This document shows, in pieces, positions 26,477 through 27,068 of a DNA stretch of 64,000 nucleotides. Within the stretch, counting starts at the first letter, position 1. Each line of letters begins with the position of its first letter. Both the position numbers and the translations under genes were made by a program. The notes under the pieces are model-generated. The model did no database searches and was not told where the DNA came from. It worked only from the letters and a program-made list of their open reading frames with translations. Origin of the DNA: Escherichia coli (GTDB lineage: Bacteria > Pseudomonadota > Gammaproteobacteria > Enterobacterales > Enterobacteriaceae); the NCBI RefSeq assembly GCF_051903065.1, contig NZ_CP178438.1. One strand, 5' to 3'.

Positions 26477-26740
26477 ATGAAAATCAAAACCACTGTTGCT
26501 GCATTAAGCGTACTTTCTGTTCTCTCTTTCGGTGCATTCGCTGCCGACTCCATTGATGCTGCACAAGCACAAAATCGTGAAGCAATCGGGACCGTATCCG
26601 TAAGTGGTGTGGCGTCTTCGCCAATGGATATGCGTGAAATGCTGAACAAAAAAGCGGAAGAGAAAGGCGCAACGGCCTACCAGATTACTGAAGCTCGTAG
26701 CGGTGACACCTGGCACGCTACGGCTGAACTGTACAAATAA
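26477..26740 (+). CDS. yhcN: YdgH/BhsA/McbA-like (DUF1471) small periplasmic stress protein
   Basis: 87-aa ORF with a signal peptide (MKIKTTVAALSVLSVLSFGAFA) and a DUF1471-like C-terminus (ATAYQITEA...). Confidence 0.85.
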   Translation: MKIKTTVAALSVLSVLSFGAFAADSIDAAQAQNREAIGTVSVSGVASSPMDMREMLNKKAEEKGATAYQITEARSGDTWHATAELYK

Positions 26741-26767
26741 ACCCTCATCGTCTTGTCCGACGATATT

Positions 26768-26792
26768 GCCCCCGGTTCGGGGGCTTTTTTTT
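26768..26792. terminator. Rho-independent terminator between convergent yhcN and yhcO
   Basis: gcccccgg-ttc-gggggc followed by tttttttt. Confidence 0.8.
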
Positions 26793-26795
26793 GCG

Positions 26796-27068
26796 CTAAT
26801 GACGAACATTAAAACGCAAATGCCCTTCCAGCTCTTCCTCTGCCTCATCAAACAGCAATATTAACGCGCCAAAACGGCGACGCGTTTTCTCTCCCAGATG
26901 AACAAATTCAATCTCAAGTGGTAGCGGCAGGACATCGTTCATTAACACATCCCATAGTGAGTCGAGATCGCGTACCTTATCTTTCGCCAGACCAAAGGCT
27001 TGGCTGAAGTCGCGATAAAAATCCTCCTGACTCTCAATCTCATCAAAATCAAAGGTATAAATATTCAT
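26796..27068 (-). CDS. yhcO: Barstar-like (ribonuclease inhibitor family) protein
   Basis: 90-aa [30 protein letters not shown]...; acidic small protein of the barstar fold family. Confidence 0.8.

Follow-up and report, generated by a model that had tools for sequence, protein, structure and literature searches.

Why does Escherichia coli keep yhcO, a gene for what appears to be a barstar-type ribonuclease (RNase) inhibitor, with no barnase-type RNase encoded beside it? The gene lies in a 64,000-nucleotide stretch of an E. coli chromosome (RefSeq assembly GCF_051903065.1, contig NZ_CP178438.1), here called the window, in which the segment 26477-27068 runs from the start codon of yhcN to that of yhcO, the two genes being convergent and 55 bp apart. 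A sequence-only reading of this segment had proposed that YhcO belongs to the barstar family, that no barnase-like gene is nearby, and that such an orphan could be the remnant of a lost toxin-immunity pair or a protection against toxins delivered by competitors. Comparing profiles, structures, gene order and phylogeny, we conclude that yhcO is, by evolutionary origin, very probably the surviving inhibitor half of an old barnase-barstar pair. Together with a putative present role as a stand-alone inhibitor of RNases from outside the cell, this is the best explanation overall, and we give the combined reading a probability of roughly 0.55.

Judged by family, fold and motif, YhcO is a genuine barstar-type RNase inhibitor. 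Residues 1-81 match the Pfam Barstar family (PF01337) with 38.6 bits and an E-value of 1.1e-9, the curated gathering cut-off being 23.4. PDB entry 2CX6 shares 89 of 90 residues with the protein, and the Salmonella entry 5F4C shares 76%; both are crystal structures deposited as 'ribonuclease inhibitor Barstar'. We compared an AlphaFold (AF2) model built from a 35-sequence alignment (predicted local distance difference test score, pLDDT, 96) with known structures by Foldseek, setting aside a single-sequence model (pLDDT 73). The model superposes on 2CX6 with a template-modelling (TM) score of 0.99 and on 24 Bacillus barstar chains with TM scores of 0.70-0.81 at a probability of 1.00; chains taken out of barnase-barstar complexes gave 0.78-0.81, with a root-mean-square deviation of about 2 Å. 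The family assignment made from sequence alone, and the barstar-fold similarity on which it hinged, are thus borne out by a profile match above threshold and by a TM score of about 0.8 to Bacillus barstar. The identification is correct but not new, since the RefSeq product name is already "barstar family protein" and two crystal structures are available; gene, family and structure were all previously on record. The Barstar profile, the alpha/beta fold with its parallel three-stranded sheet packed by helices, and the DxxxD/W motif with acidic helix-4 residues are present in YhcO. Adjacency to a barnase gene is absent at yhcO but found at its positional orthologs in Yersinia, Serratia, Proteus, Xenorhabdus and Pragia.

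A few database entries outside this pattern have mundane readings. A 241-bp scaffold of Corynebacterium lipophiloflavum (L040) encodes YhcO at 98% identity and a 422-bp contig of Hydrogenophaga intermedia (L047) at 70%; enterobacterial contamination of these assemblies is most likely. Three metagenomic proteins of 137 residues (P0029, P0031 and P0032) are 98-99% identical to YhcO residues 1-80 and carry an extra PF04397 (LytTR) annotation, and are probably frameshifted or chimeric gene calls.

Within the window, the statement that no barnase-like gene lies nearby stood up to a direct search. Queries of barnase, binase, RNase Sa and RNase T1 found no match by tblastn (best E 0.089). When all six translated frames of the window were searched with a hidden Markov model (HMM) made from 40 enterobacterial barnases, the best E was 1.3.

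Gene order across Enterobacterales points to a partner that was once there. Searching a single genome from each species with aligned YhcO relatives yielded 80 named Enterobacterales loci, which we mapped with tblastn, using barnase proteins and the proteins encoded in the window as queries. The nearest non-orthologous relatives of YhcO, about 41-45% identical and found in Xenorhabdus, Pragia and one metagenomic contig, are encoded within a few bases of a PF00545 (barnase-type) gene, downstream of yhdP-(CN hydrolase)-tldD, and these PF00545 genes carry an N-terminal signal-like segment. Three layouts recur. The order tldD-barnase-barstar occurs in Xenorhabdus, Proteus and Regiella, and in Pragia with an extra DUF817 gene after tldD; tldD-aaeR-aaeXAB-(aldH)-barnase-barstar occurs in Yersinia, including Y. 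pestis, and in Serratia. The third, tldD-aaeR-aaeXAB-(aldH)-barstar-yhcN-argR-mdh, has no barnase and is that of Enterobacteriaceae (Escherichia, Salmonella, Citrobacter, Klebsiella, Enterobacter, Lelliottia, Buttiauxella, Cedecea, Kosakonia, Trabulsiella, Yokenella, Siccibacter and others) and of Erwinia mallotivora. Counting the named loci together with earlier ones, barnase lies directly upstream of barstar in 40, hereafter the paired loci, and is missing in 44, the orphans, the window's copy included. Paired genes are separated by 3-5 bp or overlap by up to 17 bp of the barstar start; in Proteus mirabilis records of the PLSDB plasmid collection, barnase lies 9 bp upstream of barstar, after tldD. 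The barstar neighbours in Serratia, Y. pestis and Xenorhabdus match PF00545 with E-values of about 1e-15, and the catalytic Glu/Arg/Arg/His motifs can be read in their sequences.

The orphan loci keep the context aaeB-(aldH)-barstar-yhcN-argR-mdh in all but three, which end early upstream, and no PF00545 gene occurs within 10 kb on either side. yhcN adjoins the barstar gene only in lineages without barnase. In Escherichia, Salmonella, Klebsiella and Pseudocitrobacter the aldehyde dehydrogenase gene, aldH, is missing as well, and the spacer that remains measures 83-175 bp (91 bp in the window). The spacer in the window holds no remnant of barnase or aldH, and the best E for the barnase HMM against the six-frame spacers of all orphan loci was 0.4; at the level of sequence, the presumed barnase deletion left no trace. 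Two side observations concern these neighbourhoods. The aldH homologue of Y. pestis (L078, 7881-8945) aligns over 355 of 484 residues, against 474-484 in other Yersinia, and may be a pseudogene. Downstream of barstar, Yersinia, Serratia, Proteus and Pragia carry darP(yjgA)-pmbA (for example L008, 6540-8653), genes that are far away in E. coli; the change to yhcN-argR-mdh therefore marks a rearrangement breakpoint directly downstream of the barstar gene.

Comparison of the loci shows, with high confidence, the following history. An ancestral Enterobacterales chromosome carried, downstream of tldD, an operon of a secreted, signal-peptide-bearing barnase-type RNase with its barstar a few bases on. 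In the lineage of Yersiniaceae and Enterobacteriaceae, aaeR-aaeXAB and an aldehyde dehydrogenase gene came to separate tldD from the pair. Barnase was then lost, most simply by a single clean deletion in the ancestor shared by Enterobacteriaceae (and Erwinia mallotivora), the order in which the families branch being that of published phylogenies. When Escherichia, Salmonella, Klebsiella and Pseudocitrobacter later lost aldH too, yhcO came to stand by itself after the aaeB terminator and a conserved putative sigma-S-type promoter. Replacement of barnase by aaeRXAB was considered and ruled out, because Yersinia and Serratia have both aaeXAB and barnase.

Phylogeny and selection are consistent with this origin. 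In a neighbour-joining tree rooted on the Bacillus barstar (100 bootstraps), the 44 orphans formed one clade in 93 replicates, nested among paired barstars, with Enterobacillus, Serratia and Yersinia as neighbours and Pragia basal; the gene tree follows genera. The ratio of non-synonymous to synonymous substitution rates (dN/dS) was 0.145 among orphans (pairwise Nei-Gojobori, 152 pairs with 0.05 < dS < 1.5) and 0.103 among paired barstars (220 pairs). Each of the 44 extracted orphans, from about 20 genera, has an intact open reading frame (ORF), and yhcO is found, nearly always in single copy, in 5425 of 5426 complete E. coli genomes. Because dN/dS is about 0.15 and the gene is present in nearly every E. 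coli genome, yhcO is a retained remnant under purifying selection and not a decaying relic. The suggestion that it is left over from a lost toxin-immunity pair consequently holds as far as descent goes, given its positional orthology with barnase-barstar loci, and fails where it implies decay, yhcO being a core gene. We also considered whether evolution accelerated in a burst once barnase was gone; barstar/TldD distance ratios do not support this, barstar divergence being about three-fold that of TldD in both classes.

Selection has kept a particular surface. We aligned the 44 orphans with 38 distinct paired barstars and the Bacillus barstar. YhcO residues D36, W39, D40, E75 and E79, equivalent to barstar D35, W38, D39, E76 and E80, are invariant in the 82 distinct orphan and paired sequences. 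In the barnase-barstar complex these five barstar residues are the largest contributors to binding energy, as known from double-mutant cycles. YhcO has an isoelectric point of 4.5, compared with 9-9.7 for barnase domains. Two further positions, L47 (95%) and P48 (98%), are fixed in orphans; their equivalents in paired barstars are Ile and variable, respectively.

These features suggest what YhcO might do now. The protein would still be made, in stationary phase and under acid stress, and its acidic helix-2 face (D36, W39 and D40, backed by E75 and E79) would insert into the basic active site of a guanyl-specific microbial RNase. By plugging that site, YhcO would by itself protect the cytoplasm from barnase-family RNases that arrive from outside, such as Rhs or type VI secretion system (T6SS) toxins with barnase C-termini. 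Taken on its own, inhibition of exogenous barnase-type RNases is a putative role that we hold tentatively, at a little under even odds. The threat itself exists in Enterobacteriaceae, where Rhs-barnase toxins circulate, and the second proposal of the sequence-only reading, protection against toxins of competitors, is plausible. The conjugative IncC plasmid pN330-2 of C. freundii (NZ_AP028316.1; L093, 2134-6716) encodes an RHS protein of 1364 residues that ends in a PF00545 barnase-type domain (49.7 bits); 5 bp further on comes a gene for a 160-residue Barstar-family protein (77 bits). On Salmonella pathogenicity island 6 (SPI-6), Rhs effectors that contain 'Microbial RNase' domains are accompanied by Barstar immunity genes (PMC10469887). 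More immunity or orphan cassettes could be represented by several small hypothetical genes that lie downstream on pN330-2.

A number of observations weigh against this inhibitor role. Around the conserved core, barstar Y30 falls in a column that is invariantly Phe in paired barstars and Lys or Gln in orphans (YhcO position 31); G31 has become V32 in 100% of orphans, N33 has become D34 in 86% and A36 has become S37 in 98%. The equivalent of T42 is conserved in 97% of paired barstars but 32% of orphans, and orphans carry one residue inserted after helix 2. In the aligned orphans, then, the residues predicted to plug the active site are kept and the rim of the interface is rewritten. The Barstar HMM scores 56-58 bits in paired relatives and 38.6 in YhcO; the specificity or affinity of YhcO may therefore have changed. 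Bacillus barnase in the cytoplasm is toxic to E. coli that carries yhcO unless Bacillus barstar is co-expressed (PMC8403359, which states that E. coli has no barstar gene), so native-level YhcO does not neutralise Bacillus barnase. Low, sigma-S-limited expression against plasmid levels of barnase could explain this toxicity. BLASTP also detects no similarity between YhcO and the Rhs-linked barstar of pN330-2 (E 0.037), and cross-protection is therefore not to be assumed.

The same rewritten rim would suit an inhibitor that has been re-targeted, that is, kept for another endogenous partner of stationary phase, a basic RNase or a nucleic-acid-binding protein, with the acidic face unchanged and the periphery remodelled. 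We find this doubtful, if worth serious attention. It would accommodate the clade-wide fixation of V32, D34, S37, L47 and P48 at barnase-contact positions, a long stem branch to the orphan clade (0.15, against 0.00-0.05 for neighbouring internal branches), purifying selection that persists without a cognate barnase, the core status of yhcO, unlike typical orphan immunity genes, its co-regulation with stress genes and the failure to protect against cloned Bacillus barnase. Yet no candidate partner was found, the strongest barnase-binding hot spots are strictly kept, and the rate relative to TldD is not raised (0.45-0.48 in orphan-paired comparisons; paired-paired comparisons matched for TldD distance give 0.39-0.52); moreover, periplasmic yhcN excepted, no gene specific to the orphan lineages lies beside yhcO. 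Its most explicit form, in which YhcO was re-used for a new endogenous partner under sigma-S or acid stress through K/Q31, V32, D34, S37, the insertion, L47 and P48, is if anything slightly less probable. If true, it would document for the first time the exaptation of a barstar to a regulatory, house-keeping role.

Two further accounts are unlikely, each with a very slim chance of being right. That yhcO is a functionless leftover drifting towards loss would agree with the disappearance of the cognate RNase gene and with a searched literature that gives no phenotype or function, but is contradicted by the constraint over 152 pairs, where no overlapping gene was seen, and sits poorly with intact frames across some 20 genera, with near-universal presence in E. 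coli and with a conserved promoter element and regulated expression. The other account has YhcO as the inhibitor of a barnase-type RNase encoded elsewhere in E. coli, at another locus or on a mobile element; this genome was seen over 64 kb only, the pan-genome search was made at the DNA level only, and Rhs-barnase cassettes do occur on Enterobacteriaceae plasmids. E. coli K-12 is not known to encode a PF00545 protein. Several PLSDB 'plasmid' records of 4.1-5.4 Mb are evidently whole chromosomes, namely NZ_OL790696.1, NZ_CP134663.1 and NZ_CP141089.1 (E. coli), CP125156.1 (K. pneumoniae) and NZ_OL790811.1 and NZ_OL790812.1 (P. mirabilis). Serratia barnase found no match by tblastn at E<=1e-3 in the three E. 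coli chromosomes (4.80-4.94 Mb) or in that of K. pneumoniae, all four of which bear yhcO, and the same threshold gave no plasmid-borne barnase in E. coli. By blastn against the 5426 E. coli genomes, Serratia barnase-barstar DNA matched nothing but a 72-nt stretch of yhcO. A relaxed tblastn of the plasmid collection with Bacillus barnase (E<=1) did not return Escherichia among the ten genera named, two further genera being unlabelled and uninspected; it recovered the Rhs-barnase gene on the Citrobacter plasmid and weak matches on uninspected Citrobacter, Enterobacter and Klebsiella records (a single Klebsiella record in the last case). Barnase had no match in the phage collection, and Rhs-barnase cassettes bring their own, unrelated barstar. 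A phage or defence link for YhcO was also rejected, with no PHROG or PADLOC match and a mis-filed Salmonella contig as its sole match in the phage collection.

The systems closest to yhcO resemble it in some respects and differ in others. The barstar of Bacillus amyloliquefaciens (PDB 1BRS and 1A19; PF01337) shares with YhcO its fold, a length of about 90 residues, acidity, cytoplasmic location, the D-x-x-W-D motif of helix 2 and the E76/E80 equivalents, but identity is about 20%, the aromatic Y29/Y30 are replaced by K/Q in YhcO, yhcO has no adjacent barnase and YhcO does not substitute for it when barnase is cloned in E. coli (PMC8403359). The paired barstars of Yersinia, Serratia, Edwardsiella, Proteus, Xenorhabdus and Pragia, positional orthologs at 36-57% identity, have in common with yhcO the tldD/aaeXAB/aldH context, CTATACT after aaeB and a nearly identical C-terminal half. 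They differ in having an intact signal-peptide PF00545 gene that adjoins or overlaps them and the motif FGxNLDALWD, whereas at yhcO the RNase gene is apparently lost and the motif reads KVxDLDSLWD. One Klebsiella record cross-references Y. pestis YPO3690, which may be the Y. pestis paired barstar. The Imm-Barstar proteins of Rhs, T6SS and contact-dependent inhibition (CDI) toxins (Zhang et al. 2012, PMC3482391; the SPI-6 and pN330-2 examples above) belong to the same Pfam family, carry the DxxxD signature and are cytoplasmic protectors against a barnase-domain toxin. Their genes follow directly after the toxin in variable islands and plasmids, and some encode 160 residues; yhcO belongs to the core genes and has housekeeping neighbours. 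Orphan cdi and rhs immunity genes are, like yhcO, immunity-family genes without a toxin. The classical ones form arrays beside toxin loci, vary between strains and are shuffled horizontally; yhcO is vertically inherited, single-copy and near-universal, and lies in no toxin island, its neighbours being aaeXAB, tldD, yhcN, argR and mdh.

An element CTAYRCT, nearly always CTATACT(T), occurs in 60 of 69 Enterobacterales loci. It follows the AaeB tblastn match at a distance of about 15-210 nt, mostly 40-55 nt, and is kept whether aldH, barnase or barstar comes next. CTATACT fits the published extended -10 consensus of sigma-S promoters, which makes it a putative sigma-S promoter of yhcO. The gene has been listed as RpoS-dependent (PMC2907692), acid-induced along with yhcN (PMC2270276) and LldR-activated (PMC10272880). 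As the element is kept whichever gene follows, and given the RpoS and acid reports, stationary-phase control was probably inherited from the ancestral RNase-inhibitor operon. Both LldR boxes listed for yhcO in PMC10272880, AAgTGGTagcggCAgga and cttTcGcCaGACCAaag, fall within the yhcO coding sequence (26917-26933 and 26981-26997) and outside the 91-bp upstream spacer. Our search of the literature on YhcO function or origin turned up only transcriptome and regulon listings, and the function was still given as unknown in 2023 (PMC10272880).

The wider order of genes in the window, degQ-degS-mdh-argR-yhcN-yhcO-aaeBAX-aaeR-tldD-yhdP, is that of the E. coli chromosome. The ORFs and the RefSeq annotation agree on it and on the convergent yhcN/yhcO arrangement with aaeBAX on the other side, as the sequence-only reading had described. 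YhcN falls in PF07338 (E 6.8e-23) and scores 150 bits against the NCBIfam equivalog 'peroxide/acid stress response protein YhcN', for which the cut-off is 125. The features around yhcO are listed in the table; the aaeB terminator folds as RNA at -20.3 kcal/mol (z -5.9, 200 shuffles) and is missing from the list of a terminator consensus scan.

Table. Features of the yhcN-yhcO-aaeB region and its synteny anchors, in positions of the window.
Feature	Position	Strand	Description
yhcN	26477..26740	+	87 aa, DUF1471 periplasmic stress protein; ORF, Pfam, NCBIfam
yhcN intrinsic terminator	26768..26794	+	7-bp all-GC stem and eight-T run, inside the 55-bp gap
yhcO	26796..27068	-	90 aa, barstar-fold, cytoplasmic, without N-terminal signal sequence
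aaeB-yhcO spacer	27069..27159	-	91 bp; site of aldH and/or barnase gene in relatives; 69-locus comparison
putative yhcO promoter CTATACT	27116..27122	-	~47 nt upstream of ATG; sigma-S-type extended -10 (C at -13 and TATACT)
aaeB intrinsic terminator	27128..27156	-	hairpin and U-run, between aaeXAB operon and yhcO
aaeB	27160..29127	-	synteny anchor, upstream of yhcO, same strand
tldD	31522..32967	-	synteny anchor

Some details of the region vary. For aaeX, the mechanical ORF 30073-30345 gives 90 residues from an ATG at 30345, and RefSeq has 67 from 30276. In most Enterobacteriaceae yhcO is followed by a tandem pair of yhcN-like DUF1471 genes (loci L017-L054, region 10300-11000); only one is present in Escherichia (26477-26740 in the window), C. 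amalonaticus ku-bf3 and UBA5654. Between aaeB and yhcO, Escherichia sp. MOD1 has an enlarged spacer of 260 bp (L012, 9741-10001) and E. albertii one of 793 bp (L013, 9208-10001). Both enlarged spacers hold 'gccgcatccggca' repeats resembling repetitive extragenic palindromic (REP) elements, and that of E. albertii also has two copies of CGCTACGCTTATCAG.

What this analysis adds is the probable origin of yhcO and its retention by selection across Enterobacteriaceae after the RNase was lost. Work on barnase cloning has assumed that E. coli lacks a barstar gene, and this is corrected here. The question of YhcO function can now be put to the test, through inhibition of Yersinia or Serratia barnase and protection against Rhs-barnase toxins. 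More generally, yhcO would be a natural example of what becomes of an inhibitor interface after loss of its partner, with the core hot spots frozen and the periphery rewritten.

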